From positions 5,883 through 69,882 of the forward strand of contig CAZEMQ010000001.1 of NCBI GenBank assembly GCA_964513435.1: a stretch of DNA of 64,000 nt. The letters run 5' to 3'. The DNA is from an uncultured Muribaculaceae bacterium (GTDB lineage Bacteria > Bacillota_I > Bacilli_A > RF39 > UBA660). The position numbers and the translations under genes are program-made. Of the stretch, positions 274-64,000 are shown one piece after another (position 1 is the first letter of the stretch; every line of letters begins with the position of its first letter). The notes under the pieces are model-generated. The model saw only the letters and a program-made list of their open reading frames with translations, did not search any database and had not been told where the DNA came from.

Positions 274-924
274 ATGGAATTAAATAAACTTATTTCAAAA
301 CCACAATGTATTGATACTTATAAAAAAGTATCTAATTATTTAGGAAGTAAACTTGGAGAAATATTAATAGATATAGAAAAATTCTATTATAGCGATTTCT
401 GGGAATCTAGATTTAAAAGAAGATTAGCGGAAGAAGGATTAGAGTATAACCCAATTGAATTAGATAAAATATTAGGGGTTACTACTTTACTTAAAGAGAA
501 TAATGTATTTAAATTATTTGACAAAGATGAGAATAATAAAGGAGTATCTAATAAAGGTACTATGATAGCTCTTAATATAAATATGAGTATTGAATAGTCT
601 AATGATTCTCACATTAAGAATGTTATTATGCATGAATTTGGACACAGGCAATACAATTAGGAAGAGTTTCGTATAATAAAATACTTAAACAGTAAGATAT
701 TAAAATCCCCCTCCCCTATGGGTTTGGAAAGTGAATTAGATTATCAATACTTTACCAATAAAAATGAAATTCGTTAGAGAATAATTCCACTTGTTAAGGA
801 AATGTATGATAACGCATGGACACCTGAATAGATATATTATTTATCAGATAATTTAAGGCAAGATGATTTATATGATATGTATAGTAAAGCAGAAATTTTA
901 TATTGGTTAGAAAATATACTATAA
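274..924 (+). CDS. putative zinc-metallopeptidase-like protein, TAG-recoded (in-frame TAG at 595, 658, 775, 829)
   Basis: Track ORF 274..597 ends in TAG. The same frame stays open for ~110 more codons through 3 further TAGs to TAA at 922-924. It contains the HEFGH (HExxH) motif at ~630-645. Confidence 0.5.
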
Positions 925-964
925 TAGCCAGTCTTGGAATATTCCGAGATTGGCTATTTTGTTT

Positions 965-1672
965 TTATACAATATAATTATTCTGAGATTGTTCTCTTTC
1001 TTTTAAAAGTTTGTCTATTAGTTTTTGTTGTGCTTCAATCTTTTTGCTTAATTCAATAATATTTTCTGTATTTTGTTCTATCTTATTTTCATGTTCTTTT
1101 AGTTTCCAAATAATTGCTTGACCTAATTCAGCTAGTTTGAATAATTTAGTATCTGTTTTACAACCCGTTTCTATATCCCTATTTTTATTATCAACTGAAA
1201 CTAAATAATTTTCTTTTTTTAATTCCTGATTACACTTACGAATGCAAGATTCTGACATATTTATCTTATTAGCAAGATCATAATTAGAATACGAAATTTT
1301 CCCAAAGCCTTCTGTATCTTTGTACATATATTGTTGTGCAGCCACAAGATATGCTTTAGTAGTTGGAGTTAACGTTTGATTTTTTATGAATTCTGGACTA
1401 AAAGGTTCAAAAGTTTTATATTTACTAAATGTATAATAATTTCTACGTCCTTTTTTCTCTACTTTAATATAATCTTCTTTTACTAAGTTATCTATACATT
1501 TTTTAATTGTTGGAATACTAATTTTAGATTCTTCAGCAATTAAAGCTAATGATGGAAAACATCCATCTTTTCCGTTATGAGATTTAATCACTACATAAAC
1601 CAATTGATCAATTGGTTTTAAATTGTGATTTGACATTTCATTTGGTAATTGTGTGTGTTGTTTTGTTTCCAT
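965..1672 (-). CDS. tandem winged-HTH DNA-binding protein with C-terminal coiled coil (putative replication initiator or early regulator)
   Basis: Two HTH-like repeats and a K/E-rich heptad C-terminus. Divergent from the iteron/repeat region. Confidence 0.5.
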   Translation of the reverse strand: METKQHTQLPNEMSNHNLKPIDQLVYVVIKSHNGKDGCFPSLALIAEESKISIPTIKKCIDNLVKEDYIKVEKKGRRNYYTFSKYKTFEPFSPEFIKNQTLTPTTKAYLVAAQQYMYKDTEGFGKISYSNYDLANKINMSESCIRKCNQELKKENYLVSVDNKNRDIETGCKTDTKLFKLAELGQAIIWKLKEHENKIEQNTENIIELSKKIEAQQKLIDKLLKEREQSQNNYIV

Positions 1673-1675
1673 TAA

Positions 1676-1800
1676 AAATTTAAAATTTATATTCAGCTTT
1701 ACTTAGTTTTTGAGGCTTATATAGATTAGTCTTTAAATATATATTTAAAATTTTATCCTTCAAAATTTTATCAATTATTTTAACAAAATTTTTAATTATG
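1676..1800 (+). repeat. promoter/leader module copy 1 (AAATTTATATTCAGCTTTACTTAGTTTTTGAGG...TTCAAAATT...AATTATG)
   Basis: ~120-bp direct repeat shared with 2010..2170. Confidence 0.6.
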
Positions 1801-2330: not shown

Positions 2331-2333
2331 TCT

Positions 2334-2560: not shown

Positions 2561-2572
2561 TACACTTAAATT

Positions 2573-3412: not shown

Positions 3413-3418
3413 TAAAAT

Positions 3419-5194: not shown

Positions 5195-5413
5195 TTGTTA
5201 TATAAAATGAGACGTAGATTTAAAACATCAAGAGTTTGTAGCTCTGATAATTACAAATTATCTAGAAAACTAAGCAATGTTTCAAAACATGTACAAGTAA
5301 AAGAAAAACTTGTTATTAGAAAATATTATGTTAAGTGTTTTGACAAGTTAATAGAAATAACAGAAAACGAAGCAATTTGTATTTATAAATCTATAGAAAT
5401 TATAATAGAATGA
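5195..5413 (+). CDS. hypothetical basic protein
   Basis: ORF from the track. Confidence 0.3.
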   Translation: MLYKMRRRFKTSRVCSSDNYKLSRKLSNVSKHVQVKEKLVIRKYYVKCFDKLIEITENEAICIYKSIEIIIE

Positions 5414-5671
5414 GAACAAAAATTTATCTTACTGTTCCTGATTCATATATCCTTGGAATAGCATTTAATAAAATTGATAAAGGTTTTTCATTTGGTATTT
5501 GTCTGTTTAAAATAGCAATTGTGTTAGATTTTCAAAATAAATAAATTATGAAAGTAAATATTAGAACTGAAAAAATTGAAAGTATAACTTTAGGTACGGC
5601 TCTTGACGTAAGTACGGTAGGTATAACATTTTCCATTGGTTTATTTAAAATAGCAATCGCTTAGATATATT

Positions 5672-6046
5672 ATGGTAAATAAATATTTTAGTTATAATAG
5701 AGAGTTCAGAATTGATACAGTTAACAGTGTAGTCTTTTGTATACTACACTGTTACGTTCATTTTGATATGGAAAATGAAATAAGAAGGAAATTTCTACAA
5801 TTTGGAGATTTTGTTGTAAAGGCAAAAGCAAAATGTCATGCAAATGACAGCTTTGATCTTGAAAAAGGTAAAAGTATTGCCGAAAGTAGAGCTATTGCTA
5901 AAGCATATTCGTTAGTAATTAAATCTCTTAATTCTATATGTGAATACTATTTAAATAAATCAAATGAATTTGAAAATATAAAAAATAATTTTGAATTAGA
6001 GGAATCTAAAGAAAAATTACGTATATTTGAACTAACAAACTTGTAA
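5672..6046 (+). CDS. hypothetical protein
   Basis: ORF preceded by the repeated GTTTAAAATAGCAAT motif. Confidence 0.35.
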   Translation: MVNKYFSYNREFRIDTVNSVVFCILHCYVHFDMENEIRRKFLQFGDFVVKAKAKCHANDSFDLEKGKSIAESRAIAKAYSLVIKSLNSICEYYLNKSNEFENIKNNFELEESKEKLRIFELTNL

Positions 6047-7014: not shown

Positions 7015-7359
7015 ATGAATGTATTAACTTATATAATATCAAGAATAGTGTTCCTTTTAATAACCTTTTGGATGTTAAAAGGAACTACTTTTACAACTTA
7101 TTATGGTAAAACAATAGAAAATTCCTATGATGCGTCAGGATATTTGTTACTTATTATGTATATAATTATGTTAACACCTTATGTAGGAACATTTTTCTTT
7201 TTTATATGGATTATATGGTTTTTTATATGGTCTTTTGTTAAACCTCATGGGTGTTATAGGAGTTACATACTTATTACTCTTTCAGAAAATAATAGTCTAC
7301 ATAAAGTATTTATAATGATGCACAAAGTATTAAGATTACTAGAAAAACCAATAAAATGA
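7015..7359 (+). CDS. membrane protein (holin candidate)
   Basis: Hydrophobic helices; immediately upstream of the endolysin. Confidence 0.35.
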   Translation: MNVLTYIISRIVFLLITFWMLKGTTFTTYYGKTIENSYDASGYLLLIMYIIMLTPYVGTFFFFIWIIWFFIWSFVKPHGCYRSYILITLSENNSLHKVFIMMHKVLRLLEKPIK

Positions 7360-7847
7360 TGAGCAAATCGTTTGTTTTAATAGGCGTAATAGCATGGTTA
7401 TCAATTTCAATATGGTTATCGGTTATTACATATAAAGTATATAATCTAACTCATAAACCAGTAAATATTGAATTTGAACTAAAACTCAATGATAATTCTG
7501 AGTTTATGAAAGATTGGGAAGCTAATGTCACCAATATGCTTGCAGCTTGTACATATTATGACATTAAATGTCCCAAGATAGTTACAGCACAAGCCATATT
7601 GGAATCTGGTAACTTCAAGTCTAATGTATTTAAAAAGTATAATAACCCTTTTGGACTTTATAATAGTAAAACAAAAGATTATTTTAAGTTTGAACATTGG
7701 ACTGACGCAGTAGTAGCTTATAAAAATATGATTCAATATCGTTATAAAGAAGGAGATTATTATATATTTTTAAAAAAAACACGATACGCAGAAGATCCTA
7801 ATTATATAAATAAAGTAAAAGCAATAGAAAACAGTTTAAAAATATGA
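7356..7847 (+). CDS. endolysin, glucosaminidase domain with N-terminal signal-anchor
   Basis: AQAILESGNFKS...NNPFGL matches the mannosyl-glycoprotein endo-beta-N-acetylglucosaminidase family; N-terminal TM helix. Confidence 0.6.
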   Translation: MMSKSFVLIGVIAWLSISIWLSVITYKVYNLTHKPVNIEFELKLNDNSEFMKDWEANVTNMLAACTYYDIKCPKIVTAQAILESGNFKSNVFKKYNNPFGLYNSKTKDYFKFEHWTDAVVAYKNMIQYRYKEGDYYIFLKKTRYAEDPNYINKVKAIENSLKI

Positions 7848-8641
7848 ATGAAAATGAAATAAAAGAACTTTAGTCTATTCTAGTAGAACAAGGATTATTA
7901 AAAGAAAATGATATTGATGGAATAATGGGTCCAAAAACTAATTCAGCATTAAAAGAATATTAGAAATATAGAATACAAAACGATAAAGGATTTATTAATA
8001 ATACATTTCCTTATGGGTATAGTGATGACGATGAAGATACTGTGTTAGGAGTTATAACTAAATTAGGTAAAGCAATATTTGGAAAATCTAATAAAAGAGA
8101 AAAATTAGATGAATTTGTGTTACTTGATTTAAGTACTCCAGAAGGTATTAAAAGAGCCAAAGAATTACGATATATTTTTAATGAAAATTTTAAGGATTAG
8201 AATTTACCATTATCTTATTTACAAAATTCTGCTAGAGCCAGATATGATTTAAATGCTTTATATCAAGGAAAACCATAGATATTTTACACATTTATGATAA
8301 ATCCTGATTATAAATCTGTTTCTGCCGGAGATAGTCCAACATATATTTATAGAAATCCTATACTTCGTAAATAGCTACAAAGTGAGGCCAGAAGTTATGG
8401 TAAAAAACATGGTATTGGCATACACAATGTAGTTGGAGATCCACTTACTACATTTAATAATTATACAATAAATACCATGCACGAAGATGGATCTGGTAGA
8501 GTAATAGATATTTGGGATTTTTCTGGAGATATGTTTAATCCTTTTAAACGTAAAGTTGTAATAGGAGATACTATTCCACCTACTGCACCTTTAAAAAATA
8601 ACATCTCAATAAGAAAATCAAAGAATTAGAAATCAAATTAA
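7844..8641 (+). CDS. TAG-recoded lysis-associated protein with peptidoglycan-binding domain (6 in-frame TAG)
   Basis: ATG overlaps the upstream TGA (ATGA). 266-codon frame interrupted only by TAG. DGIMGPKTNSALKEY[TAG]KY fits PG_binding_1 with Gln at the TAG position. Confidence 0.55.
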
Positions 8642-8654
8642 AAATTTAATAGAC

Positions 8655-9140
8655 ATGGAGATTAATTTAGGTATTTTTCAGATTTTATGTGGACTTCTCT
8701 ACATTATTGGAGCACCGTTTGGATGGGATTATATGTACACATCAATCATTGTTTGTGTGTATCTTTGGCCTATCTTGTGTACATTATCGACATTGCCGAT
8801 TCTTTATTATGCGATAAGGAAATTTATACAAACTAAAAGAATTGTTTGGGGCGTTACAAGCTGTTTGTCTTTGGCATATACTTATATGTACGTTGCCTCT
8901 ACTTTTGTTTGCCACAAACTATGGGGATTAAATTATGAAGGTGGCTACAGATGGGCTTTTGCAGAAGTTGTAGATATTTTAAGACGGTGTGCAGTAATAT
9001 TACATACAACTTATGAAATGTTAAATATATTTATTTACGTAATCTTATTTGCGTTTATTATTGGTTTTAACCTGTTTATCACTTCTCTTCTAAAAAGAAG
9101 TTTTAATGAATATGAACTAAGAAATGATACTACTTTTTAA
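8655..9140 (+). CDS. multi-pass membrane protein
   Basis: Four or more hydrophobic segments. Confidence 0.4.
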   Translation: MEINLGIFQILCGLLYIIGAPFGWDYMYTSIIVCVYLWPILCTLSTLPILYYAIRKFIQTKRIVWGVTSCLSLAYTYMYVASTFVCHKLWGLNYEGGYRWAFAEVVDILRRCAVILHTTYEMLNIFIYVILFAFIIGFNLFITSLLKRSFNEYELRNDTTF

Positions 9141-9311
9141 TATATGAAAATTGATGATTATAATATACCAAATGCGTTGTTAGATGAAGAAATAATAAAT
9201 ATCTTAGAGTATGCTGAAGATGCTGAAGCTGATTATTGGATAGACTATTATAAATCTAATCCAATACAAGATTCTTAGAATTTTTAATTTATTAACTATT
9301 AATTTTTTGTT

Positions 9312-9491
9312 ATGAAAAGTTTATTATTTATTTTTGCTTTGATGTGTGGGATTTCATGTACAAATCCTACAAATTCTTCAAGTTCTGTTGAACAAACTGA
9401 TTTCTCTGAATCAACTACAATAGATTCTATTTACATCGAACCTATTGATTCAATAGTTGCAATAGATACAACTGTAGTAGATTCTCTGTAA
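9312..9491 (+). CDS. small secreted protein or lipoprotein (59 aa)
   Basis: Manual ORF MKSLLFIFALMCGISCTNPT... with signal peptide plus Cys. Confidence 0.3.
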   Translation: MKSLLFIFALMCGISCTNPTNSSSSVEQTDFSESTTIDSIYIEPIDSIVAIDTTVVDSL

Positions 9492-9663
9492 TATTTAAAA
9501 CTAGTTTATACAGAATCTGCACAAATGGTTAGTCCTTTATAGTTTTAAGGTAAACTTATCGCTATACGAACTGTATATTTATTCTCAATGTTATGTGATG
9601 CAGCTACATGAATGAGAAACTAGTTTTAAACTAATAGAGTATATAACAGATATTTTAATATAT

Positions 9664-10455
9664 AAATTATCGGGGCTGACGGGTTTTGACAGCGATAATG
9701 ATATAAGTAAGACGTGTAGAGCGCGATCTCTTTAAACGAAGAAAAACAATAAATGCAAACTACAACAAAGTAAGAATGGCTGCCTAAGCAGCTGGCTCAG
9801 TTAATGATATGTTGAGTCGGGTTACAGGAGAGACCTAGAAACAGAAGAGGTGTGCAGAAGAAGGATTATAGAGCCACTGCACTTAACTTGAAAGCCAAAG
9901 GTTAGTAAAGCTGAATCTCCTACTATTGTCTTTAAACAGAAGGGATGTGTGCCTGCGTGGTTGACTCACCACAAACACTCGTTTTCTGCTTTAGCGTTAA
10001 AAAGTAGGTGACGGAAGGTGCTTCAACGGAGCCTTCTAGTTTCTCCAAACTATAAATGGAGTGGTAGATGTTGACTGTTCTAGTCAGTCCTAGTTTGTTA
10101 ATATCATATAACTAAATAAGCTGAACCTCAACAGTTAAAAATAGAGACACACGTTATCTTATTTATTAAATATTGTTGGACGAGGGTTTAATTACGGACC
10201 AGTTAGATGGTGACATCTAATTAAAAATATCGGATGAATTCAGGGAACGCTAAAAATAAAGCTCAGAATCAGCTTTATTCATGCCAATCCTGAGCTAAGC
10301 ACAAGGTACACCTTGTGAAAGTGCAACGACTACCGGAGAAGTTTAGCCTTCTTAATCACCGGCTTGAGCGTCCGACATCTCATTTTGAGATGATGATATA
10401 GTCTAATCTTCTTCGAAAGAAGTATAAGAACATTTTGCGATTCCCTCCAGCTCCA
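9664..10455 (+). ncRNA. ssrA: tmRNA (ssrA), interrupted in the T-loop by a group I intron
   Basis: 5' GGGGCUGACGGGUUUUGACAGCG is a tRNA-like domain start. The resume codon GCA sits ~90 nt in; tag ORF GCA AAC TAC AAC AAA GTA AGA ATG GCT GCC TAA (9755-9787, ANYNKVRMAA). The 3' end GAGGG-TT/CGATT-CCCTC-CAGCTCC-A forms a T-arm and acceptor stem complementary to the 5' end. Confidence 0.7.
10189..10437 (+). other. group I intron (ORF-less, ~249 nt) within the tmRNA T-loop
   Basis: Conserved P AATTCAGGGAAC, Q AATCCTGAGC, R GCAACGACTACC and S GATATAGTCTAA elements in canonical order. The intron ends in G and the upstream exon ends in U. Confidence 0.65.
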
Positions 10456-10857: not shown

Positions 10858-11117
10858 TTTTAAATTTATTAGAAATGAAAAAAGATTTAAGAGAAACTTG
10901 TATAAATTTGATTTTAGATAATTCTGAAATTAAAAATATTATTTGTTTAATGAGTAATGGTGAAGAATTTAGCGGAATAGTTGAAGGAATAAACGCAGAT
11001 ATTTCATGTCTTCTTTTACAAGCTATGTTAGACAGACCTTATCTTTATCCTATATTTAAAAATGCTGTAGAAACATATATAGAAATAAAATTAGAAAACA
11101 ATAATAAATTAAACTAG
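10824..11117 (+). CDS. hypothetical protein (ends in TAG, then 13 more sense codons to TAA)
   Basis: ORF; the C-terminus is ambiguous under TAG reassignment. Confidence 0.3.
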   Translation: MCRKYRIFRILILNLLEMKKDLRETCINLILDNSEIKNIICLMSNGEEFSGIVEGINADISCLLLQAMLDRPYLYPIFKNAVETYIEIKLENNNKLN

Positions 11118-11332
11118 TTGGTCAAAAGCTGCAAGATCGATTGTTAACCCACATATAGAATATTTGAGTGAGTCTCATCACTAACAAGTCCCATAGTTTT
11201 CAGTAATCTATAAACTGATGACTTTGCTCTACAGTATTTCAACAAGAAACATGTAGAAGTTGTGTCCTACTTTGAAGGATTGAATTATTATTATAAATAA
11301 AAAGGGACTGTTATTTATAAGGTAATTCTTTT

Positions 11333-11895: not shown

Positions 11896-13044
11896 ATGAA
11901 AAAATTTTTATTATTGTTAGTAGCAGTATTCACTGTAATTGGAATTAATGCACAAGAGTTAAGAATGCCTAAGTACAAATTTTTGGACAATTGGTCATTA
12001 TCTGCAGGAGTTGGGACAAATATGACATTTTCTGATGAGTATCAATCTATTAAACCTCAAAACTGGGGGCCAGAAATATGGCTATCTTTGAATAAAGATT
12101 GGACTCCAGTCTTAGGGAATAGATTTAGTATTGGTTGGGGACAAAATAATGTTTGTACGATTGGTGAATGGAACGGAACTAAAGATTTCTTACAACAATT
12201 AGCATTGAACCCAAATAGACTGAGTGCTAGTGTGGATTTTACTATCAACCCGTTAAATTTGTTTAGTTATAATTATGACCGAAGATTTAATGTTTTGGCG
12301 ATTGTTGGCGTAGGTTATGCTCACTTATTTGAGAAGTCAACTACAGTGGACGATGTTACTGCTTCATTAAAGAAGAATAATTTCTTAGTTCCTAAAGTTG
12401 GACTTCAAGTTAACTATAAAGTTTCCGATCCTATACTTGTATTTGTAGAGAGCAACTTCCGAGTATATGACGATAAACTGGATGGATTGGTTGCTGCAGC
12501 ACAATACGATGCTGATTTGACATTGACTGCTGGTATTACTTATAGATTCAAAAACCACGATGGATCAAGAGGATTTAATTATATTCTTTCCTATGATCAA
12601 GAACATATAGACGCGTTGAATGATGAGATAAATGACCTGAGAAAAAAGTTGGCAGCTAAACCTACAGAAGTTATAGTACATGATACAGTAACTGTAAATA
12701 CAGAAACTGTTAATAACATTTCTACCCCTATGACGATTAGATTTGTAGCTGATTCTTATGATGTTGCTGATGATCAATCAGCTAATCTAGAAAATCTTGC
12801 TACATTTCTAAAGGATAATGAATCAGTTAATGTATCTATTATAGGATATGCTGATGCTGAAACAGGAACTTCTGACTATAATCAACAACTTTCAGAAAAA
12901 AGAGCGGAAGCTGTAAAAGATATACTTGTAACAAAATATGGTATTGATTCCAGTAGATTGACAGTATCAGCTGAAGGTGATAAAGTACAACAATATTCTA
13001 CTAATAATTGGAATAGAGCTGTCATTATTACTTCCAATGTATAA
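11896..13044 (+). CDS. OmpA-family outer-membrane protein (signal peptide + C-terminal OmpA domain)
   Basis: MKKFLLLLVAVFTVIGINAQ signal. C-terminus IIGYADAETGTSDYNQQLSEKRAEAV...NRAV fits the OmpA_C consensus. Confidence 0.6.
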   Translation: MKKFLLLLVAVFTVIGINAQELRMPKYKFLDNWSLSAGVGTNMTFSDEYQSIKPQNWGPEIWLSLNKDWTPVLGNRFSIGWGQNNVCTIGEWNGTKDFLQQLALNPNRLSASVDFTINPLNLFSYNYDRRFNVLAIVGVGYAHLFEKSTTVDDVTASLKKNNFLVPKVGLQVNYKVSDPILVFVESNFRVYDDKLDGLVAAAQYDADLTLTAGITYRFKNHDGSRGFNYILSYDQEHIDALNDEINDLRKKLAAKPTEVIVHDTVTVNTETVNNISTPMTIRFVADSYDVADDQSANLENLATFLKDNESVNVSIIGYADAETGTSDYNQQLSEKRAEAVKDILVTKYGIDSSRLTVSAEGDKVQQYSTNNWNRAVIITSNV

Positions 13045-13081: not shown

Positions 13082-13154
13082 GCCTCTGTGATGTAATGGA
13101 TTAGCATATTTCTCTTCTAAAGAAATCGTTAGAGTTCGAATCTCTACAGAGGTA
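13082..13154 (+). tRNA. tRNA-Arg (anticodon UCU)
   Basis: Cloverleaf: acceptor GCCTCTG/CAGAGGT, anticodon stem TTTCT/AGAAA, loop CTTCTAA, T-arm TAGAG-TTCGAAT-CTCTA. Confidence 0.75.
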
Positions 13155-13190
13155 CTTATATGTTCTAATAAATATTAAAATATAACTTAA

Positions 13191-14353: not shown

Positions 14354-14439
14354 GCTGAGATGGCGGAATTGGTAGACGCATCAGAATTAAAATCTGATGG
14401 GCAGTAATGCCCGTGTGGGTTCGAGTCCCATTCCCAGTA
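14354..14439 (+). tRNA. tRNA-Leu (anticodon UAA), long variable arm
   Basis: GCTGAGA-TG-GCGGAATTGGTAGACGC...; anticodon loop ATTAAAA; T-arm GTGGGTTCGAGTCCCAT. Confidence 0.75.
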
Positions 14440-14456
14440 CTAATACTTAAAGAATT

Positions 14457-20274: not shown

Positions 20275-22619
20275 TTGAAGCGAATGAATAGAGATGAAAG
20301 ACAAACTTTATGTATTAAAAGATGGATAAACACTAAAGGACGCGCAAGCATTGTTGCAGCCACTGGATTTGGGAAGAGCTACGTTGGATTACGAATTATT
20401 CGAGGAATTATATCTAAGAAACGTGATTGCAAGGTTATAATTGTAGTTCCAACTATTACTTTAAAAGAGCAATGGACTAAATCAATTGATAAATGGGGAT
20501 TTACTCTTAATTGTGATATACAGGTTATAAATACTTCTATTAATAAAGAGCAAAATTGTGACTTATTAATAATTGATGAATGTCATACTGCGAATGCTGA
20601 TACTTTTAAACAAGTATTTGAAAAAATAAAGTATAGATGGATTCTTGGTCTTACAGCTACATTTGAGAGAATTGATGGTAAGCACGAAATATGCAGTAAG
20701 TATTGTCCAGTATGTGATACAATTTCAATAAATGAATGTTTAGAGAATGGTTGGGTTTCTCCTTTTAAGGAATATCAAGTTATTATTGATGTGGATGACA
20801 TTAATATTTATAAAGGATACAGTAAAGAATTTACTAAGTCTTTTGAATTTTTTGGGTTATGTGGCCCCTATTATTAGTAATAATAGAAAACCCTTTGAAA
20901 ATCTGAACCCCCATTTACATTTTGTTTTGTGTGTAAAATTTAGTAAATTTGTATTATAAATATTGACTAAATTTTAAAACTATGACTGAAAAAGAATTAG
21001 AAAAATTAAAAACATTAGAAAAATGGGAAACAGATAACCAAGGTTTAATTAAAGGAGATTGGAAATTACTAGAAGTATATAAAGAAATAAAAAAGCCTCA
21101 TCAAAAATATTGTATTATAGAATGTATTCATTGTGGTGAGACTAGATTAGTTTTGTATTACAATTTTCTAAAAAAAGAGTCCCCAAGACCATGTACTAAA
21201 TGTGGTGGAAAATGGATCACTTGGGGCAAATCTATGGTTGGCAAAATTGTAGGACATTATAAAATACTTAAATACATTGAGTGTATTAAAAGAATTTCTA
21301 ATAACAAGATAGATGTTTTCTTTAAAGTATAGTGTATATATTGTGGAGATATTAAAGAGAGAGAATTATATAACAAATCTAATTGGAATAGATATAAATT
21401 ATGTCCAAAATGTCCTAGAAGAAGAAACGATTATTATACTGTTAGATATAAAGAATATCAAAACGGAGCTAAATCTAGAAATTTAGCATGGAATCTTTCT
21501 TTAGAAGATTTTATTAAAATTAGTACTAGTAATTGTTTTTACTGTGGAGCAGAAGCCTAGGTACAAAATAGAGTACAACATGGTTGCTTAGTATCTTTAG
21601 AAGGAAATTTTAATGGAATTGACAGAGTAGATTCTAATTATGGATATACTGTAGATAACTGTGTTCCATGTTGTTCTCATTGTAATATGATGAAAATGCA
21701 CTATACAAAAGAAGAATTTTTATCTTAGATTTATAAAATATATCTTCATTCAATTAAACAAGGTCAAGAGACTATCGAAAACACATCTAATGATGGAAGT
21801 GAGTAGAGTACATTACAAGCTAATGGTAATGGAAGCGGAGGGTGTCCTATAAAGGATAATGAGATAGTCCAATCTATATAGTAATATATAGCAGTTCATA
21901 AGAGAACGTATATAACGTTGCGAGTTATATAGAATATAAATGTCGACTGGAACAAAGTAAATTCTTGTCTTGGTAAAGATGGATATAAATACCGTTATCA
22001 ACTAAGTAAGGAAATGTGTCCTAATGATGAGGAGAAAAGAAAAAACATGATGAAAAACATTACTTATCATGCAACTAACTTTATGCGTGTTCTTCAAGCT
22101 AGAAAATCATTTATCAATAATCATCCAAAGAAATTAGAAATAGCTAGAAAAATTATTGAAGCTAGACCTAATTCTAAAATTATTACTTTTAGTAATAGTA
22201 TAAAAATGGCTGAATCTATTGGAATAGGCCCTGTCTATTCTGGAAAAGATAGTAAGAAAAAAGGCAGAATTACGCTTGAAGAATATATTAATGGTAATTA
22301 TCAAGTTCTAAATACAATAAGAAAAGCAGATGCTGGTCTTGATATTCCGTCTATTTCTGTTGCTATAATTATAGGTACAGATAGTAGTAAAATTAGAGCA
22401 ATACAACGCCTTGGACGTACTTGTCGTTTTGAAGAAGACAAACGTGCTGAGATTTTTAACATCATTATTAATAATAGTGTGGAATTATCTTGGTTTGCTA
22501 ATTCACATCCAGATAATAACTATATTACAATAGACGAAAATGGACTTGATCAAGTCTTGAAAGGAGAAGAGCCTAAACTATATACTAAAAAGGTAAAGGA
22601 TTTTCAATTTAGATATTAA
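20275..22619 (+). CDS. SF2 (DEAD/DEAH-like) DNA helicase, interrupted: exon 1 20275..~20860, exon 2 ~21990..22619
   Basis: N part carries motif I ATGFGKS, motif II IIDECH and motif III LTATFER. C part carries motif V TIRKADAGLDIP and motif VI QRLGRTCR. A ~1.1-kb insertion lies between them. Confidence 0.6.
20861..21990 (+). mobile_element. putative group I intron carrying an HNH homing-endonuclease gene
   Basis: Splits the helicase. An R-like element TATTGACTAAA lies upstream of the HEG and an S-like element AATGAGATAGTCC downstream. Boundaries approximate. Confidence 0.5.
20982..21884 (+). CDS. HNH homing endonuclease, TAG-recoded (5 in-frame TAG)
   Basis: Track ORF 20982..21332 ends in TAG and the frame continues. 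CxxC...CxxC zinc ribbon, then NGIDRVDSNYGYTVDNCVPCCSHCNMMK as in the HNH_3 family. Confidence 0.6.
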
Positions 22620-29899: not shown

Positions 29900-30046
29900 A
29901 TGTATAAGAATTTATATAAACCAGCAGGTTCTGAGACTACATTTTCTTTAGTCGCTTCTTATGTTTATGACACAATAGAACTTCTTGAAACTTATACTGA
30001 TAAAAATGGGCGTATTGCTATTAAAGAAATTGAATGGGAGGAATAG
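29900..30046 (+). CDS. small protein (48 aa), paralog of ~56880..56970
   Basis: Shares ...IAIKEIEWEE with the second copy; ends TAG..TAG-TAA. Confidence 0.3.
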   Translation: MYKNLYKPAGSETTFSLVASYVYDTIELLETYTDKNGRIAIKEIEWEE

Positions 30047-35033: not shown

Positions 35034-35474
35034 ATGATAACAAGGGAAAATATCGTTTTAGGAGAAGGTGGTGAAATCATATCAGCAGACATAACCACTA
35101 TAAAGAAAGTTTCTTCAGAGGAATTTTGTCAAGTCTATTTAGAAGATAACGCAGATTTTTATAAACTAACTAAGGCTGAGTCAAACGTTTTAGCTGTCTG
35201 TTGGTATGTATCAACTTATTATGAAGATAATAAACAATTACCAGGAAATAAAGTGTATTGTGATAAATCTTTTGTAGATTTGTGTATAAGAAAAACAGGA
35301 TTGAAACAAAGTACAATAAAAAACGCTTTAACTAGTTTAGTTAAAAAGGAAATGCTTTGGAAGGATAAAGAATATAAATCAATATATTATTTAAATCCAA
35401 AACTATTTTTCAAAGGTAAGTTGTCTGATAGAACAAAAGTTATTAAACATTATGTTGAATATCGAATTGCATAG
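35034..35474 (+). CDS. winged-helix DNA-binding protein, paralog A (paralog B at 59256..59735 on the minus strand)
   Basis: ~45% identity to paralog B (EEFCQVYL..., YYLNPK.FFKGKL.DRTK); ends TAG-AAA-TAA. Confidence 0.5.
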   Translation: MITRENIVLGEGGEIISADITTIKKVSSEEFCQVYLEDNADFYKLTKAESNVLAVCWYVSTYYEDNKQLPGNKVYCDKSFVDLCIRKTGLKQSTIKNALTSLVKKEMLWKDKEYKSIYYLNPKLFFKGKLSDRTKVIKHYVEYRIA

Positions 35475-35550
35475 AAATAAAAGTTAAACTAGAAGAATTA
35501 AAAAAGAAACTTGAAACTAAAAATACTTATATAATATGAAAAAGAATTAG

Positions 35551-41885: not shown

Positions 41886-43184
41886 ATGAAATATTGTATG
41901 ATAAAAGTAAGAAAAAGAAATGGAAATCTTGTACCTTTTGAAGTGCATAAAATAGAAAATGCCCTTCAAAAGGCTTTTCTATCTTGTAATTATAAGATAG
42001 ATAAATCTATAATAGAAGAAATTGCAAGCAATGTTAGTATCTGGAATGAGATCAGTGTAGAGGATATTCAAGATCAAGTAGAGGAGCTGTTGATGGATTA
42101 TGATTTCCCATCAGTTGCTAAGTCTTATATTCTTTATAGAGCTAAACATAGTGAAGCTAGATTTATTAAAGAGAGAATAGATTATATGAATAAATATAGT
42201 CTATCTAGTGATAATGCAGCTACTTCTTCAGAGACAGATGCCAACGCTAATGTTACTATGAAGAATGTTGCTAATCTAGAAGGAGAAGTATACAAGACTA
42301 CTAATAGAATTATTCAAAGACAAAGAATAAAGGATAAGTTATCTGAACTCTTTCCAGAGATAGCTAAGCAATATGAAAAAGATCTTGAAAACTATATAAT
42401 TTACGCACATGATGAGTCGCAGACTCCTACCCCGAAGGCATATTGTATGGCTGCGACTTTATATCCTTTAATGCTTGAAGGAACAGGCAGTATTGATGGG
42501 ATAACCCCTTCAGCACCTAATGACATTCAATCTTTTAGTGGACAAGTAACCAATTTAATGTTTCTACTGTCTTCACAAGTTCGTGGAGCAGTGGCAATGG
42601 GTGACTATATAATAGCTTTAAATTATTATGTAATTAAAGAGTTTGGAACTAGTTGGTATGAAAAACTAAATGCTATAGTAACCTCAGAGTATTCTATAAA
42701 TAAACGTACTATTAAAGATAGTATTAGGAAAGGAATGAAACAATTTATTTATGGAATAAATCAACCAGCTGGTAATAGAAGCTACAATAGTCCTTTCAGT
42801 AATTTAAACTTCTTTGATAAATATTATTATGAAGCTCTTTTTGATGAATTTTATTATCCTGACGGAACAAAACCTGAATGGAAAGCAATAGACTGTTTAC
42901 AAAGAATGTTTATGGAATTACTTAGAGAGTTAAGATTAATTAAACCCCTTACATTTCCTGTAACTTCTGTATGTATGTTACATGATAATCATGATTGTTT
43001 AGATCAAGAATGTAAGAAATGGGTTGCTGAAGAATGGGCTAAAGGTAGTAGTTTCTTTCTATATCTAAGCAATAATCCAAATTCAGTATCTAGTTGTTGT
43101 AGAGTACAAAATGAAATAACTGAGAATACATTTAGCTCTACTACAGGAATGACTGGGGTCAAGTCATGGCCCTTATGTGCTTAA
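41886..43184 (+). CDS. nrdD: anaerobic ribonucleotide reductase NrdD, N-terminal piece (ATP-cone + core)
   Basis: VRKRNGNLVPFEVHKIENAL is an ATP-cone; this piece ends ...TGMTGVKSWPLCA-TAA. Confidence 0.6.
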   Translation: MKYCMIKVRKRNGNLVPFEVHKIENALQKAFLSCNYKIDKSIIEEIASNVSIWNEISVEDIQDQVEELLMDYDFPSVAKSYILYRAKHSEARFIKERIDYMNKYSLSSDNAATSSETDANANVTMKNVANLEGEVYKTTNRIIQRQRIKDKLSELFPEIAKQYEKDLENYIIYAHDESQTPTPKAYCMAATLYPLMLEGTGSIDGITPSAPNDIQSFSGQVTNLMFLLSSQVRGAVAMGDYIIALNYYVIKEFGTSWYEKLNAIVTSEYSINKRTIKDSIRKGMKQFIYGINQPAGNRSYNSPFSNLNFFDKYYYEALFDEFYYPDGTKPEWKAIDCLQRMFMELLRELRLIKPLTFPVTSVCMLHDNHDCLDQECKKWVAEEWAKGSSFFLYLSNNPNSVSSCCRVQNEITENTFSSTTGMTGVKSWPLCA

Positions 43185-43787: not shown

Positions 43788-44333
43788 ATGACTGGTAGTT
43801 GTAATGTGATTACTCTTAATATTAATAGGATTATTCAAGACTTTTGCAGAACAAATATGCTGGTAAATCTTGATGGAGAACTTGTTTCTCCTATTAATAA
43901 TGTTTATAAGTGGGAAGATGAACTCAAAAGGTATTTGACTACTATACTGGAGAGAGTCTACAAATACCATATAGCCTTCAAGACTATACTCTATGAACTT
44001 GAAGATAGAGGAATGTATAGCAGTTCTAATGCTGGATATATATTTTTAAAGAAACTATATTGTACAATAGGAGTTATAGGGTATTGTGAAGCTGCAGAAT
44101 TTCTCGGGTATGAAATAAATAATAATCCCGAGTACAAGAGCTTTCTAAAGTTAATATTTGAGACTATACAAGAGCAGAATAAGAAAAATTCTATACACGA
44201 TAAGAAACGTCCTTTTGTATTCAATTTGGAAGCGATCCCTAAACTCTCTGGGGATGTAAAATCTCTTTTGATTGACTCGGAACTCCTTTTAAGAGGACAA
44301 CGAGGCGCAAGCAACTTAATGTGTGCAGCGTGA
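43788..44333 (+). CDS. nrdD: NrdD middle piece
   Basis: MTGSCNVITLNINRI resembles the NrdD (G)xxxxTLNLPRI motif. The frame opens at 43776. Confidence 0.55.
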   Translation: MTGSCNVITLNINRIIQDFCRTNMLVNLDGELVSPINNVYKWEDELKRYLTTILERVYKYHIAFKTILYELEDRGMYSSSNAGYIFLKKLYCTIGVIGYCEAAEFLGYEINNNPEYKSFLKLIFETIQEQNKKNSIHDKKRPFVFNLEAIPKLSGDVKSLLIDSELLLRGQRGASNLMCAA

Positions 44334-50778: not shown

Positions 50779-51133
50779 AATGAACTTAAATGAATTTAGA
50801 ACATTAAGAAAACCTTTTTATATCCATCCAGAAACTTTATTAATTAAGTTTCCCAGACAAAAACATCTGGATAGTTCTTGCGCGGAATGGTTCAGTGACG
50901 AAAATATTCCTTTTTTACATACAATTAGAGGATATTATAATGAAGAGGATAATTATGTAATGTTATATACTAATGATTTTGAAACACCAGATATTAGTAT
51001 AAAATTCTTAACATACATTTTTGAATATTTTCCTAATATAGATTGGATTGGTATAGGGTGTATTAAAGGAAAGGAAGGTGAAATATGGAGTCCAAAAATG
51101 AAAATACAAAGAACAAATGTTAATAAGAAATAA
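50771..51133 (+). CDS. hypothetical protein
   Basis: ORF from the track. Confidence 0.3.
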   Translation: MNKMNLNEFRTLRKPFYIHPETLLIKFPRQKHLDSSCAEWFSDENIPFLHTIRGYYNEEDNYVMLYTNDFETPDISIKFLTYIFEYFPNIDWIGIGCIKGKEGEIWSPKMKIQRTNVNKK

Positions 51134-53673
51134 GATTGTTATTGTATATGATATAGAATTATTTCCCAATGTTTTTTATTGCACATTAAAAGAAACAGAA
51201 TCAAATAAAAATGTTTCATTAGAAATTTCAAATCGAAAAAACGACATACACAAAATAATTAATTTTTTTCATAGAGTTAAAACAAAAGTAAACTCTAGAA
51301 AAGAAATTAAAGATAAATATATATTTTGTGGATATAATAATATACACTACGATAATGTTATAATTAATTATATAATTGCTAATCGAGAACGATTAATAAA
51401 TTGTAATTATGCACAAATATGTGCTGAATTATTTGAATTAAGTAATCAAATTGTTAATTCTGGAGACGGTATTCAATCTTGGTATAAATGGAAACATCTT
51501 ATTTATTTTGACACTTTAGATTTACTCACAATGTTGTTTTCTCAAAAACTTAGAGTAGGTTTAAAATCTATGCAAGTAACAATGCAATATTCAAATGTTC
51601 AAGAATATGAAGGTGATTTCAGTAAACCATTACCAGATTCTGAAATTCCAAAGATGGCTGCATACAATATCAATGACGTTGAGAGTACAACAGAATTATT
51701 AAACAGATGTAAATCGGATATTGATTTAAGACTTAATATTGAAGAAGAATACAATATTGATGTTTTAAATAAAGATGGGGTGAATATTGGAATGCAAATT
51801 ATTGCACAAAAATATTTGGAAAAAACTAAATTAAAATGGAAAGATATTAAAGATTTACGAGATCCGTGTGATGTTATAGATCTTAATCAAATAATTTTAC
51901 CATTTATCAAATTTGATAATCCGATTTTACAAGATGTATTAATAGAACTTAAAAAACAAAAAGTATCTCCAGGTAGAAAAGGTTACGAACGACATTTTCT
52001 ACTAGATAATGTTGAATATACCATAGGAGTGGGTGGTATTCATAGTGTAAATACACCTGATATATTCAAATCTGATGAAAATTGGGTAATTTCAGATATT
52101 GATGTTGCGTTAATACATTGGCGCAAGTAAAACAAACTAAATTGCGGGAACATTCTTAGAGCTTTTGTTACCAACTTATAATAGTAATATATAAGGGCAA
52201 AACTAATCACTTTGATAAGGTAAAAAGACAAAAGATTGGATAATCCGCAGCCAAGTTACCTATTTTAGGTAAAAGGTTCACAGACTATTCCTTTATGGAA
52301 GTAGGGTATAAGTGACGTTTATATCCGAAAAAGTTTGAATTTATTTTGGGAGCTAGCATTACATACTTTTAGATAAAGACGAACTAGCCTTAAAAGGAAT
52401 GTATCAAAATAAATTATGATATAGTCGATAATGAGTCGAAAGATTCATACACACGAGTAAACGTCTTAGTGTGTGAGAAAAGCGATGTATCCCAGTCTTA
52501 TAATAGAACATAAATTTTATCCACCTCAATTAGGAGAAGCGTTTTTACATATTTATTCTAAAATTAGAGAAGAAAGAGTAGAAGCTAAACATAAAGGATT
52601 TAAAACAAAAGATGCTACATTGAAGTTAGCCTTAAACGGGTTGAATTTTCGTTTCAGCTCCTTCATCCAGGGATGGATGATGTAAACAAACCAAAATCGG
52701 TGAAAGTCTGGAATGATAATACCGAGGTAATTGTAGAAACTAAAGAGTCTACAACACCGTACAGCATAGAGACTGAACCTGATTAGTCAGAATAAAATGT
52801 CTCCACGAGTGGTTTGATCTAGAACAGAATAAAATATATGCGGATCTATAACGAATTAATAAGTTATAGAAGTATGGGATAAAAAACCTGTACGATAACA
52901 ACAATGTGAGTGGCATGCTTCAAAATGAGTATAGCTTTTGTTATTCTCCCATTACAGCTATGAAAGTTAGAATAAATGGACAATTAATGTTATTAATGTT
53001 AGCAGAACGGTTAATTAACATTGGTTGTAAGGTCTTAAACGCAAATACGGATGGAATCTTTGTATTAAGATCTCGTTCTGAAGAAAAAATGTTTCAACAG
53101 GTTTGTAGGGAATGGGAAAAATTAACCAAACTTACACTTGAAGAAGATAAATTTGAAGCCTTTTATCAATTTGCTATTAATGATTATCTTGCGATTAAAG
53201 AAGGATATAGTAAAACTAAAAATCCAAAACTATTAAAGAAAAAAGGATTATTTATAGATACTGTATCTTTAGGGAAAGGAATGAATGCAATAATTATTCC
53301 AGAGGCAATTAATAAATATCTTGCAGATAATATTCCGTTAAAAGAAACCATATATAATTGTAAAGATATTAGTAAATTTTTAACTTTTCAGAAAGTGGCA
53401 AAAACCTTTTCTGTGGAATATAATGGTAAATTAATTACTCATATAAATAGATATTATGTATCAACTGATGGGTATAGTCTTTATAAATGTAAAGTCAATA
53501 CAAAAGGAGAAAGAAGTGGATATATAAATATGTTAAAAGGATATGGAGTAACTATAACAAACAATCTTGATGAAATAAAAGAATTTCCGAATAACGTTAA
53601 TTATAATTATTATATCACAGAAGCTAATAAAATAATCACAAAACTTAAACAAAAACAGTTAAGTTTGTTTTAA
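51117..53673 (+). CDS. family-B DNA polymerase, three exons (51117..52110, 52483..~52640, ~52888..53673)
   Basis: Exo motifs YDIELFPN, YNNIHYDNV and YNINDVES. Spliced motif A DIDVA|SMYPSLII; motif B region KLALNG|LYD; DTDG motif C variant in exon 3. Confidence 0.6.
52111..52482 (+). other. group I intron (ORF-less, 372 nt) in the DNA polymerase
   Basis: P AAATTGCGGGAAC, Q AATCCGCAGCC, R GGTTCACAGACTAT and S ATGATATAGTCG are all near-consensus. Exon 1 ends in U, the intron ends in G, and splicing restores motif A. Confidence 0.7.
52641..52890 (+). other. second intervening sequence in the DNA polymerase (~250 nt, type unresolved)
   Basis: Exon 2 terminates at TAA 52683 after motif B begins. 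The exon 3 frame opens at ~52870 and completes motif B. Core intron elements are not clear. Confidence 0.35.
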
Positions 53674-60024: not shown

Positions 60025-60111
60025 TTCATACCAAAGTTGATAACTTCATTATTTTCAATAATAAATGTCTAAAACAGTCTAAAAATAAGTCAAAAATATT
60101 TATAAAAATTT

Positions 60112-60168
60112 AGCCCTTTATTTACATTTTACATTACGTAATTTGTAGATAAAGGGCTTATTTTTTTT
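60112..60168. terminator. terminator-like hairpin with T-run
   Basis: AGCCCTTTA...TAAAGGGCT plus T8; long loop. Confidence 0.3.
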
Positions 60169-60357
60169 AAATTATATAGTAAAAATCTGTTCTATCTTGG
60201 ATATTTAAATCTTTTGCATTACACTAGAAATCTCCATTGTAAAATATAAGATTATTAATAGCATAATCCCATTTAAAATATCCTTCAAAATTAGGAAGTT
60301 TTCCTAATTTTCCTTCTTTAGTTTTATTACATAATTCAGTGTATGTCATAACTAATT

Positions 60358-63300
60358 TTATGTTCCAAATGTACCACCTTCTCTCTTAGTTCTAAACATA
60401 TCTGGTTTAATTGCATCTAATACAGGTTTAATCTATTTTAAACCTCCTGATGTTTTAACTATTCCATCCCAGAGATCTTCTTCACCTGTAAGAACTTTTA
60501 TACCTTGGTTAGTCATTCTAGCTCCCCATTCAAAAGAAAAAGGTGTCCATTGTCCAAGTGGTCCACCGATAGATTCTATCGCATTAAAATCCATAAATGA
60601 ATTTTTTACAGCCATTACAGCAATATTTGCAGCAGTAATACCTAGACCAGTAACAACATCTCTATTTTTTATATTATCTTCTTTTAATTCTTTTAACCAA
60701 TCTGCTAATAATGCACCGATTATTGATCCTCCTATCAACCACATTGTTAAATCATAACCAGCCTATTTTATGTTACTTCTGTATGCTCTTCTGAGGTTTT
60801 CATCCTGATTATTCCAAGTAGCATCCCAACCTTGTTTAAAAGATCCAGCATTTTTACTATTTATAACTAATTCCGCAAATGTAGCCATAATTCCTTCTTG
60901 CCAAAGCCCTTTCCACTACATTACAGGAGCTATAGTTTGCATTCCTCTTCTGATTATTTCATCTTCACTTAAAGGAGGTTCATTATAAAGGATATTACCA
61001 CTCTAGTCTACCTGATAGTAATATTTTACAGTTTTTCTTTCTCCTGTATTTCTATCAATTATTGTTTCAGTATAATGTTCCCAGTTTCCTCTAAGACGTA
61101 CACCTCCAGATTGTAAATACTAATTCTTTTTACCAGACCAATATGTTTTAAATTGCAACCACATACTTCCTGCTAATGTAGACATTATTAAGGATCTTTT
61201 TTCGTGAGAATAATATCCATAAATATCATCAGCAAGTGATTTCATACTTTCAGCTTCTTTATTAGTATATGCTCTAGGTAGAGGTTGTGGATTAGACATA
61301 TCTAATTTAAATAAAGTTCCGTCTTTGTTTCTGGTACGCTCTGCTTCAAATTGTTTTGCTACAGCGTAATATAACGATCTCTATTCGTTATACTTGGGAT
61401 CAGATACCCTACCGTTAGCAAATGCCTCAAATCTTTTATCCTTTTTCCAGTCGTATATCAACTCTCCTTTTTCATTTATATGATGCGCATAATAACAGCC
61501 ATCTCCTAACATCTAAGCAATAAAAATAGTCATTCTATTATAATAATCTGGTCTAGAAGCAAATTTAAATAACATATTTGTAAAATTCCAAATACCTTTT
61601 CTAGAAGTACTTATTTTATCCACATAAGTATTCATATCTATGTCATTTAATCCGAATAATTCATTAAATGCAGAACATAAAGTTGGAGTATCTGAAAAGT
61701 GACTTAAATCAGAATAAACTATCTTTAATGCTTTTTTGAAATTATTAAAAGTAAAAGAATCTTTTCCATCGGGTTTTCTAATCATTAAACTTATATCGAC
61801 CCATAATCCTTGTAAAGGCTAATAAATAGCTTGTACTGGAGCAAATGCTAAGGTAGCTTTTGATGCTGCGGATTTAATCAATCCTAGTTTGTTAGCAAGA
61901 CCTTGCAATTTTGGATCTACTATAGATTGATTAAAGATCTTATTTCTAATATAATTATTAATGTATTCCATATCTTTACTGAATACATTGTTCTATATAG
62001 ATCCTTGTGTTGCAAGATGAATCATAGCTGCTTTTATCATAGGAAATACTCCATCTACATTATCTTTTATAGAATATGCAAACAAGTGTTTATATAATAA
62101 TGTTTCTAGATTGTGTTCAAGATTTTCAATACCTAATGACTTAATTTTATCTAATCTTCGAGCTTCATTTTCTCCTCCATCAAATAAATTAGTCATAGTA
62201 AATAATATTTGTGAATCTTGCTAGTCACTAGTCTCAACTTCGGCATTGAAAATTCCCTCTAACTTTTCCCTAGCTTTTTTAAATGCAACAGATGGCATAA
62301 GATACCTTAATTTACCTTTTAATGCAGATAATAATCCTACTGTAGAAACCAATGAATCATCACTACCCCTAGCTAATGGAACTCGATAATATCTTACATC
62401 ATCTGTTTCTTTCATTTTCTAAAGCTCTTCATCTGTCATAAGGGGATACCTATTTTTATTTATCTTATATAGACAATACTCTAAAAATTCTCTTTCAGCT
62501 CCTTGTAACCTATTAGGATTTTTAAACATAAAATCTCCATCAGCTGTTACTTCTGTCATATTTTCATATAATGAAACTTGATTTCCTATCGTCCTTTCTT
62601 CTAACTTACCAAAACTTTTCTATCTTTTTAAGTTTCTTATTAGCCTAGTAATTTCCACTTTTTCTTTTTGCATTTCATCACGTACATTTTGATAAGCCTA
62701 CGTTGTAAGCTAAGTAACTAAATTTAAAGTTTCACTGTTCATGTTTCCTGGATTATCAAAATATGTTCCAGACCAACCATCTTTAAATATCATGATACTT
62801 TCAATCCATTTATCATGGTCAGACAACTACTGTCTAAATTTTATTCCATTAGCTTCAGCGATTGCAAATAAAATTGCATTATGTAAAGAAACTTCTTTGG
62901 AGTTTATTTCTGCTTGATTTGTGTATATTTTGTCTAGATAATTATATCCAGTTCTACTAGTTGTTACAGTGTTAAGTATTGATAATACTTTATTCAAAGC
63001 TGCTATTTTATCAGGAGCACTAGCATCTATATTTTCATCAAGAACTGTTCTACATTCTCTTAAAGATGATAATTTTCGATAACTATCTCTCCATCCATAA
63101 TTATCACCCTCTGTCATTATATGATCGAATAACATTCTACACTATTCGTACATTGTAGCAAATTTGATAGTTCCATCAGAAATCTTATTATTCTAAACTC
63201 TATGGTGTTTGTTTAACTCCGTCCAACAGTATAATAACTATTCATTTGTTACCAATAATCCATCACCAAATTTAGGATTAACTATACGTACATTACCAAC

Positions 63301-64000
63301 TGTATATCCTTCTATACCAGACATCTAATTAATTAGAAGTAATGTTTCCATTAATTCTATGTTCCCATTTACTGCTTCTAACATCATTGAATTAGATCTG
63401 GATTTTTGTGCAACATCGGGTTCATAAGATCCTGTTAATAAAGTTCTATTCTTCAATGGATTATCTTTACTTAGATATTTTCTATAATTAGTTTTTAAGT
63501 TATTAGTACTAACTCTAATAAAATCTATTTGTTTAGGATAAAATCCATCTTTTGTTTTTAATGTTAATATTCCGAATGATTCTAACAGTTCGTTATCTAA
63601 AATTTCCCAAGTTCCATTACAATACGGAGATAAGTTATCACGTAACCAATACATTTCTCTATCAGTAGATCTAAACTTAGGAGAAGGGAAGTCTACACTT
63701 TTTATTCCATTTTTTATAGCTTCGTTTATAGCACGCTTAATATCTGCTGTATATCTAAGTCTATTAGCAGGCTAACTTTGCATAAATTTTGTTACTTTCT
63801 AAACAAACTCAGGTTCTGAATTAGCTGTTATAGGACTACTACCATCAGATAAAGATAATGTGAATATATTATTTTCGTCAGGAGTCAATTTTTTCCACTG
63901 TTTAAGCATTTTAATTACTTCATCTTGTGTAATTTCACGAACAGATGAATAATCAGGAAACCATTCACTCATAATATCTTTAACTTGCTACGTAGCTTCT
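60358..64000 (-). CDS. very large TAG-recoded late/virion protein (partial, continues past the window end; possibly tape-measure or injection protein)
   Basis: One continuous minus-strand frame >1200 codons long. It is broken only by TAG (>20 in-frame, e.g. revcomp CTA at 60433, 60763, 60916, 61003, 61120, 61381, 61513, 61819, 61993, 62221, 62419, 62620, 62698, 62710, 62827). It ends with TAA at 60358-60360. The six minus-strand track ORFs are consecutive segments of it. Confidence 0.55.

Follow-up and report, generated by a model that had tools for sequence, protein, structure and literature searches.

Our analysis of a 64,000-nucleotide stretch of contig CAZEMQ010000001.1 (assembly GCA_964513435.1), hereafter the window, supports the reading of TAG as a sense codon for glutamine (Gln) in a defined subset of its genes. 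The window appears to cover roughly half the genome of a gut phage that is crAss-like and probably belongs to the Zeta group; in total we examined approximately 66 kb of sequence, out of a genome that measures at least 130 kb. We propose that this phage uses two reading conventions, and that TAG read as Gln would gate its late and selfish genes by way of a phage suppressor tRNA; we put the probability of this reading at roughly 0.92. The recoding is real and already known, since TAG-to-Gln recoding of late genes (code 15) has been published for the Zeta group of crAss-like phages (Yutin et al. 2021, PMC7886860; Babkin et al. 2025, PMC12386605), in which either TAG or TGA is reassigned in late genes. 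Code 15 has also been confirmed by metaproteomics in crAss-like phages (PMC9523058).

Frames bounded by TAA or TGA only were taken through a simple codon-usage gene model, which yielded 110 genes covering 85% of the window (28.5% GC). Six of these genes contain in-frame TAG; together they hold 39 TAG in 2,309 codons, with no TAA and no TGA in frame, and TAG accounts for 41% of their Gln-family codons. The remaining 104 genes have no TAG among 14,251 internal codons (Fisher p = 3e-34), while carrying 359 CAA or CAG codons. A previous sequence-only reading of this DNA had listed five TAG-interrupted frames, and we reproduced both their coordinates and their TAG counts, again with no in-frame TAA or TGA. 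Its further claim that all other genes lack in-frame TAG held for the internal codons of the 104 genes, but a short sixth gene with one TAG had been overlooked.

The largest of the recoded genes lies on the minus strand at 60358-63999 and has 22 in-frame TAG in 1,213 codons, no TAA or TGA, and a terminal TAA. The part in the window corresponds to the C-terminal three quarters of a protein of about 1,596 amino acids (aa), the N-terminus of which, outside the window, carries a PD-(D/E)XK domain. There are 100 full-length homologues. In a close relative (contig L001 in our numbering of related contigs), the genes neighbouring this one contain 29, 6, 17 and 11 TAG. In relatives, the next genes of the giant-protein block are one of 354 aa and one of at least 2,980 aa, the latter with 76 TAG. 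The overlooked gene, a conserved open reading frame (ORF) of 60 aa at 60167-60349 on the minus strand, has its single TAG at codon 42. Its C-terminus (...DFYYII, then TAA) is kept beyond the TAG in L001-L005, and the relatives have TAG at other codons, one of them aligned with a Gln of the window.

At the left end of the window, the plus-strand gene at 274-924 (g274) encodes a conserved protein of 216 aa with an HExxH motif (HEFGH) and has four in-frame TAG (595-597, 658-660, 775-777 and 829-831). It has 337 homologues of equal length and is the last gene in a recoded block that begins left of the window. Homologues of g274 in L020 and L023-L026 adjoin recoded virion genes, and to the left of g274 the relatives have recoded virion-associated peptidoglycan hydrolases and a recoded large terminase (TerL), which in L025 contains 9 TAG. 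Recoding is conserved across the clade, with up to 32 TAG in each of the neighbouring genes of L001 and L020 in addition to the TerL of L025. A second plus-strand gene, at 7844-8641 (g7844), encodes a protein of 265 aa with an N-terminal PG_binding_1 domain and contains six in-frame TAG. It directly follows a TAG-free glucosaminidase gene (7356-7847) and is likely to be related to the cell wall or lysis.

The other two recoded genes, both on the plus strand, encode homing endonucleases. An HNH endonuclease ORF of 300 aa at 20982-21884 has four internal TAG and a terminal TAG-TAA (five TAG in total). It is placed between the halves of a split SNF2/ResIII helicase gene, and its match to phrog_1035 (residues 116-274) extends across three TAGs. 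A LAGLIDADG endonuclease ORF of 255 aa at 24637-25404 has one TAG, at codon 42. Its profile match begins at residue 14, and removal of the part before the TAG costs 8 bits. Substitution scanning at this TAG fell on a variable column and did not discriminate between residues, so that readthrough is weakly supported here and this is the weakest case of the six. In L001, a TAG-free LAGLIDADG gene (L001 5466-6557, right of the window, minus strand) splits the giant gene that is continuous in L003 (the copy of at least 2,980 aa with 76 TAG); therefore, homing endonucleases of this lineage are not all recoded.

In off-frame codons, which provide a chance baseline for open frames, TAA and TGA together make up 9.4%, and off-frame stops are divided into 49% TAA, 28% TGA and 23% TAG. 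The probability that a frame would stay open past its first TAG was 2e-5 for g274, 1e-11 for g7844, 1e-8 for the HNH gene and 2e-52 for the large minus-strand gene. It is conceivable that the frames with TAG belong to pseudogenes or to selfish genes in decay, with ordinary nonsense mutations at the TAGs and pieces that are not translated as one protein. Homing endonucleases, to which the HNH and LAGLIDADG genes belong, are a class that often decays, and the LAGLIDADG gene offers only a single TAG in an uninformative column. Decay in DNA of 28.5% GC would, however, produce mostly TAA, together with TGA and frameshifts, whereas 39 of 39 interruptions are TAG. Moreover, the frames are full length in comparison with 100 to 337 homologues, and they remain open while their TAG positions vary among relatives. 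Interruption by TAG alone, in frames that are conserved, excludes pseudogenisation for five of the six genes; as a general explanation we consider it very improbable.

With recoding as the preferred reading, the residue inserted at TAG was approached by aligning the TAG positions to homologues. At the 22 TAG columns of the large gene, homologues have Gln in 46% of cases compared with a background of 4.8%; this tally is partly circular, because the database proteins had been called with TAG = Q. The closest homologue (P0001) illustrates this: its protein is not translated from its own DNA under table 11, and its gene has 32 TAG, so the database calls must have used TAG = Q. The tallies were therefore replaced by DNA-level alignments with four IMG/VR relatives (L002-L005; 61-62% identity, 27-34 TAG each in the large gene). 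The codons opposite TAG were TAG (21%), CAA (16%), CAG (8%) and GAA (8%). A likelihood test was also performed, in which TAG was masked and the residues opposite it were set against the substitution pattern that every amino acid shows in this alignment. Gln came first, Glu was 204 ln units behind, and Arg and Lys were about 285 behind (287 for Lys). Gln is thus the maximum-likelihood assignment.

Evidence independent of the database calls comes from g7844. A homologue in L019 is a standard-code gene (table 11) and has CAG opposite the TAG at codon 10. The TAG at codon 145 falls on a column of invariant Gln, with CAG in L019 and CAA in another homologue. When nine residues were placed in turn at codons 10 and 40 and the translations were rescored against Pfam PG_binding_1, Gln gave 29.4 bits, Lys 21.4, Glu 21.2 and the others 15-20 (Tyr 15.9, Leu 15.3). 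Gln was the only residue above the gathering score of 23, with a lead of 8 bits. These results bear out the earlier observation that a TAG stands where PG_binding_1 domains have a conserved Gln. A search of PDB sequences with the PG-binding N-terminus returned chance matches only. In g274, columns 129 and 168 have Q in 116/120 and 117/120 homologues (again partly circular).

We also weighed the possibility that TAG is decoded as another residue, either Leu, Tyr or Ser through a suppressor resembling class II tRNAs, or Lys or pyrrolysine. In its support, the tRNA(CUA) of L020 has a variable region with a 16-nt hairpin and, at 88 nt, a length like that of class II tRNAs, and two of the 22 TAG columns of the large gene are mostly Leu in homologues. 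The program ARAGORN labels the CUA tRNAs 'Pyl' and, in intron mode, calls the split suppressor gene described below Lys-CUU. The 'Pyl' label reflects the anticodon only, and no pyl-related family was found among the 34 larger ORFs of the window (at least 181 aa) that were scanned against Pfam. The Lys-CUU call was rejected, as it requires an intron ending in A and disagrees with the CUCUAA loops of intact homologous tRNAs. Leu and Tyr were outside the six best residues of the likelihood test, in which Lys also trailed far behind, and the Pfam rescoring likewise favours Gln over Lys, Tyr and Leu. Decoding as a residue other than Gln is therefore highly unlikely in our judgement.

The use of TAG divides the genes into an early set on the one hand and a late and selfish set on the other, as had been proposed from the sequence alone. 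A standard-code-compatible block extends over 2573-58574 on the plus strand, and outside three embedded genes (7844-8641, 20982-21884 and 24637-25404) it has no internal TAG. Its genes include an AAA ATPase, the split SNF2/ResIII helicase, DnaB, a DnaG-type primase, ThyX and a split anaerobic ribonucleotide reductase (NrdD), as well as an ATP-dependent ligase, a sigma-70-like factor, a split DNA polymerase and exonucleases. The description of the pattern as code-15-like, with TAG in late, lysis, structural and selfish genes, is supported by the Gln assignment together with the gene functions, and the partition agrees with published work (bioRxiv 10.1101/2021.08.26.457843; PMC7886860).

The ends of the early genes gave a different picture from the one described previously, in which every gene end checked was TAA or TGA and two TAG terminators were only apparent. 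Six early genes on the plus strand (5548-5682, 9144-9287, 10875-11147, 20284-20880, 29900-30061 and 35034-35480; 6/104) have TAG as their first in-frame stop, and in each of them TAA follows after 0-9 codons. The nearby TAA had been taken as a sign that TAG never terminates, but 61% of ordinary stops also have TAA or TGA within 9 codons, and the spacing is barely beyond chance (Mann-Whitney test against the TAG ends, p = 0.06). Since the spacing is only marginally non-random, it does not demonstrate that the terminal TAGs are read through, and we do not claim that a TAA is selected as a backup stop shortly after TAG ends. It is safer to state that, in early genes, TAG is restricted to the extreme end of the frame, where it matters little whether it is read as a stop or as Gln. 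This pattern has also been reported for Zeta crAss-like phages (PMC12386605).

These ends also bear on whether the host itself uses a code with TAG as sense, in which case TAG would be reassigned genome-wide and there would be no switch between early and late genes. It is in line with such a code that no gene of the window ends on TAG without a nearby TAA. On the other hand, the six early genes have TAG exactly at the end of the conserved frame, and the absence of TAG from 14,251 internal codons that are accompanied by 359 CAA or CAG is hard to reconcile with a share of 41% in the recoded genes. The phage also has its own tRNA(CUA), and the hosts published for crAss-like phages have the standard code (10.1101/2021.08.26.457843). 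We regard a recoded host as extremely unlikely.

The phage suppressor on which our preferred reading depends was located just outside the window. The only tRNA genes within it are tRNA-Arg(UCU) (13082-13155) and tRNA-Leu(UAA) (14354-14440), which flank the AAA ATPase gene on the plus strand; neither is a suppressor. Among the 34 Pfam-scanned ORFs there was no match to a release-factor family or to glutaminyl-tRNA synthetase (GlnRS). The sequence-only reading had given the same tRNA inventory, had found no release-factor gene and had placed the decoding machinery elsewhere; in agreement with this, a tRNA(CUA) lies just left of coordinate 1. In L023-L026, an intact tRNA(CUA) gene precedes the g274 homologue by 240-380 bp; in L020 and L027 the distance is about 1 kb. 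When aligned with these relatives, the window begins immediately downstream of the position of this tRNA. L027 has a second tRNA(CUA) downstream of g274, and the only copy detected in L028 is at that position. No tRNA(CUA) was found within 10 kb of the large gene in L001-L007, nor adjoining the AAA ATPase gene in the closest relatives, L008 and L010. The suppressor tRNAs have U1.G72 and A73 and show modest similarity to tRNA-Gln.

The sequence to the left of the window was obtained from contig L031 (2,234 nt), the last 324 nt of which are identical to positions 1-324 of the window. It includes an exact copy of a TAG-free 77-aa ORF (22-255, plus strand), which separates the suppressor tRNA from g274; this ORF starts downstream of the TAG at window positions 4-6. 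In L031, a tRNA(CUA) gene at 566-1638 (window coordinates -1345 to -273) is split in two. A hairpin element is followed by the 5' half of the tRNA ending in ...ACGGUCUCU, an intervening sequence of approximately 1 kb, and the 3' half, AAAACCGA...CGGGGCGAC. The interruption falls in the anticodon, between U35 and A36. Within the intervening sequence is a TAG-free HNH ORF of 271 aa that starts 14-15 nt past the 5' splice site. Standard ARAGORN reports no tRNA at this locus. When the sequence is spliced in silico (CUCU|...G|AAA), the product has a CUCUAAA loop and is a tRNA(CUA) that ARAGORN accepts as valid, and this is the case for L031, L030 and L032.

The same intron occurs with different exons in two other tRNA(CUA) genes, those of L030 (junctions near 1146 and 2145) and of L032 (reverse strand, 8536-9608; a 282-kb contig). 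Since it is found in at least three different tRNA(CUA) genes, it would seem to home to the suppressor anticodon loop. Its non-coding 3' part is 91-98% identical between copies, compared with 80-84% for the ORF. The elements of a group I core can be placed in the order P3, J3/4, P4-P6, R, P3', P8, S and P9, with a P3/P7/P8/P9 core, a U before the 5' splice site and a terminal G, and R and S are near-identical to those of an Rfam-validated group I intron in the window. Compensatory changes between copies are seen in P3 (UCUCUCU/AGAGAGA and UCCCUCU/AGAGGGA) and P9 (CCAU/AUGG and CCG/CGG), although support from covariation is thin because there are only two distinct intron copies. Based on these features, we infer that the tRNA intron probably belongs to group I and may be self-splicing. 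We lean towards the view that the suppressor is a split gene with a mobile, HNH-encoding group I intron in its anticodon, and that the code change would depend on RNA self-splicing.

Taken together, these observations suggest the following mechanism. The replication and nucleotide-metabolism genes would be expressed by unmodified host translation, which can read them because they have no internal TAG. A second set, comprising the giant-protein block, g274, the peptidoglycan-binding protein and the two homing endonucleases, uses TAG as a major Gln codon; in relatives, the terminase and virion genes of the region to the left of the window are likewise recoded. Full-length late proteins would be made only after the phage tRNA(CUA), presumably charged with Gln by GlnRS and competing with host RF1, has accumulated. 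In this way, TAG would gate translation and delay the late, lytic and selfish genes. As the anticodon of the suppressor is interrupted, splicing would be needed before it could act, and could provide an extra control step in the code switch.

Several points weigh against this account. Insertion of Gln at UAG in this phage is predicted from sequence alone, the residue tallies from database proteins are partly circular, and the amino-acid identity of the suppressor cannot be read from the tRNA sequence. In the LAGLIDADG gene, the TAG may simply be a nonsense mutation. The Rfam group I model gave no match to the L031 intron at E up to 10, and its match to the L030 intron (10.5 bits, E = 2.9) is not significant, with P3 and R/P3' in the proposed register. 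Should this intron fail to splice, the suppressor copy described here would be non-functional, and the phage would need another source. Finally, only about 66 of at least 130 kb has been seen, and the remainder may or may not hold further copies of tRNA(CUA), an RF2 or a GlnRS.

Membership in the Zeta group is probable, given that the gene content (replication block, PDDEXK giant-protein block and intron density) fits its description in PMC7886860. As in Zeta crAss-like phages, the window comes from a low-GC gut phage, with contigs of its relatives measuring 117-175 kb. The replication block comprises a DnaG primase, DnaB and SNF2 helicases, an AAA+ ATPase, Thy1 and ribonucleotide reductase, the giant-protein block combines in-frame stops with a PDDEXK nuclease domain, and introns and homing endonucleases are numerous. 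In both cases TAG is confined to late genes, and TAG ends of early genes lie shortly before a TAA. TerL itself lies outside the window, but the TerL fragment in L025 matches only those of crAss-like, Flavobacterium and Azobacteroides phages, at approximately 30% identity, and those of unannotated gut contigs, at 43-53%. Siphoviruses related to phAss-1 (PMC10607447) were considered as an alternative clade and rejected; those phages have 28-36 tRNAs and a tape measure protein of more than 3,000 aa, and the L025 TerL appears crAss-like. Megablast of the large minus-strand gene against GenBank phages returned no match, and tblastn returned distant, unannotated records only.

The window also resembles the recoded phages described in PMC9523058, with early genes compatible with the standard code, recoded structural and lysis genes, recoded homing endonucleases inside early genes and a phage-encoded suppressor tRNA. 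It differs in that no 'code change module' of RF2 and aminoacyl-tRNA synthetase was seen in the approximately 66 kb, and in that this phage is known here from sequence only. A regulatory model that includes recoded intron endonucleases in early genes has been presented (bioRxiv 10.1101/2021.08.26.457843), and for Agate phages preferential recoding of an intron endonuclease with TGA has been reported (PMC9523058). The phage studied here is a further clean example of this published strategy, the gating of late, lytic and selfish genes by a stop codon. For annotation, the consequence is that the standard code breaks late genes into dozens of false fragments (22 stops in one window gene and 76 in a neighbouring gene of a relative), so that gene calling in the window must use TAG = Gln.

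What distinguishes this genome from the described Zeta phages is that its suppressor tRNA is split by an intron. The suppressor of Zeta phages is sometimes 'undetectable', and some clearly recoded crAss-like genomes have no detectable suppressor tRNA (PMC7886860; PMC12386605). If our reading of the split gene is correct, it would account for the failure of standard tRNA finders to detect a suppressor in some of these genomes, and it provides an explanation of the missing suppressor that can be tested. We found no description of a suppressor tRNA whose anticodon is interrupted by a mobile intron in PMC7886860, PMC12386605, bioRxiv 10.1101/2021.08.26.457843 or PMC9523058, nor did full-text literature searches return one; this arrangement may be new. 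Group I introns are known from the anticodon loops of bacterial tRNAs (cyanobacterial tRNA-Leu(UAA) and Azoarcus tRNA-Ile; PMC3984707). The intron described here shares with them the position in the anticodon loop, the U before the 5' splice site, the terminal G and the P3-P7-P8-P9 core with R and S. In contrast, it carries a 271-aa HNH ORF and resides in a phage amber suppressor, it has no significant Rfam match, and its splicing is predicted only.

Additional features were observed around the suppressor genes. The class-II-like tRNA(CUA) of L020 (L020 8918-9990, on a 128-kb ENA scaffold) shows that tRNA shape alone is no safe guide to identity. It is immediately followed by a GIY-YIG endonuclease gene flanked by a 16-nt duplicate of the 3' end of the tRNA (AATCCTAGCGGGGCAA). 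A conserved element of about 40 nt with the hairpin GCAGG-TGAAATT-CCTGC directly precedes the suppressor tRNA in all of the relatives examined for it, namely L031 (541-561), L020 and L023-L025. It may function as a terminator, in association with a promoter, or as a processing signal. A tRNA with anticodon UUA, which would read TAA, is present in two larger and more distant phages that have either the AAA ATPase gene or the tRNA intron in common with this one. These are L015 (1105-1175; a 361-kb IMG/VR contig) and L032 (reverse strand, 5256-5326), the latter in addition to its intron-split tRNA(CUA).

Further observations concern the early block. The halves of three split genes, all on the plus strand, lie at 20284-20880 and 22014-22619 (helicase, with the HNH ORF between them), at 41886-43184 and 43788-44333 (NrdD), and at 51117-52130 and 52915-53673 (DNA polymerase, profile positions 51-357 and 414-654). 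The gaps are presumably introns, and no match at the Rfam threshold was found in them. A probable phage tmRNA, which ARAGORN does not report, is located at 9679-10425 on the plus strand (Rfam 46.1 bits against a gathering score of 47, E = 4e-15). Its candidate tag frame reads ANYNKVRMAA followed by TAA, and its T-loop holds a well-supported group I intron (10180-10425, 95 bits). The plus strand also encodes an OmpA-family protein (11896-13044) with an N-terminal beta-barrel domain and a signal-peptide-like start, which suggests a Gram-negative host of the Bacteroidota type.

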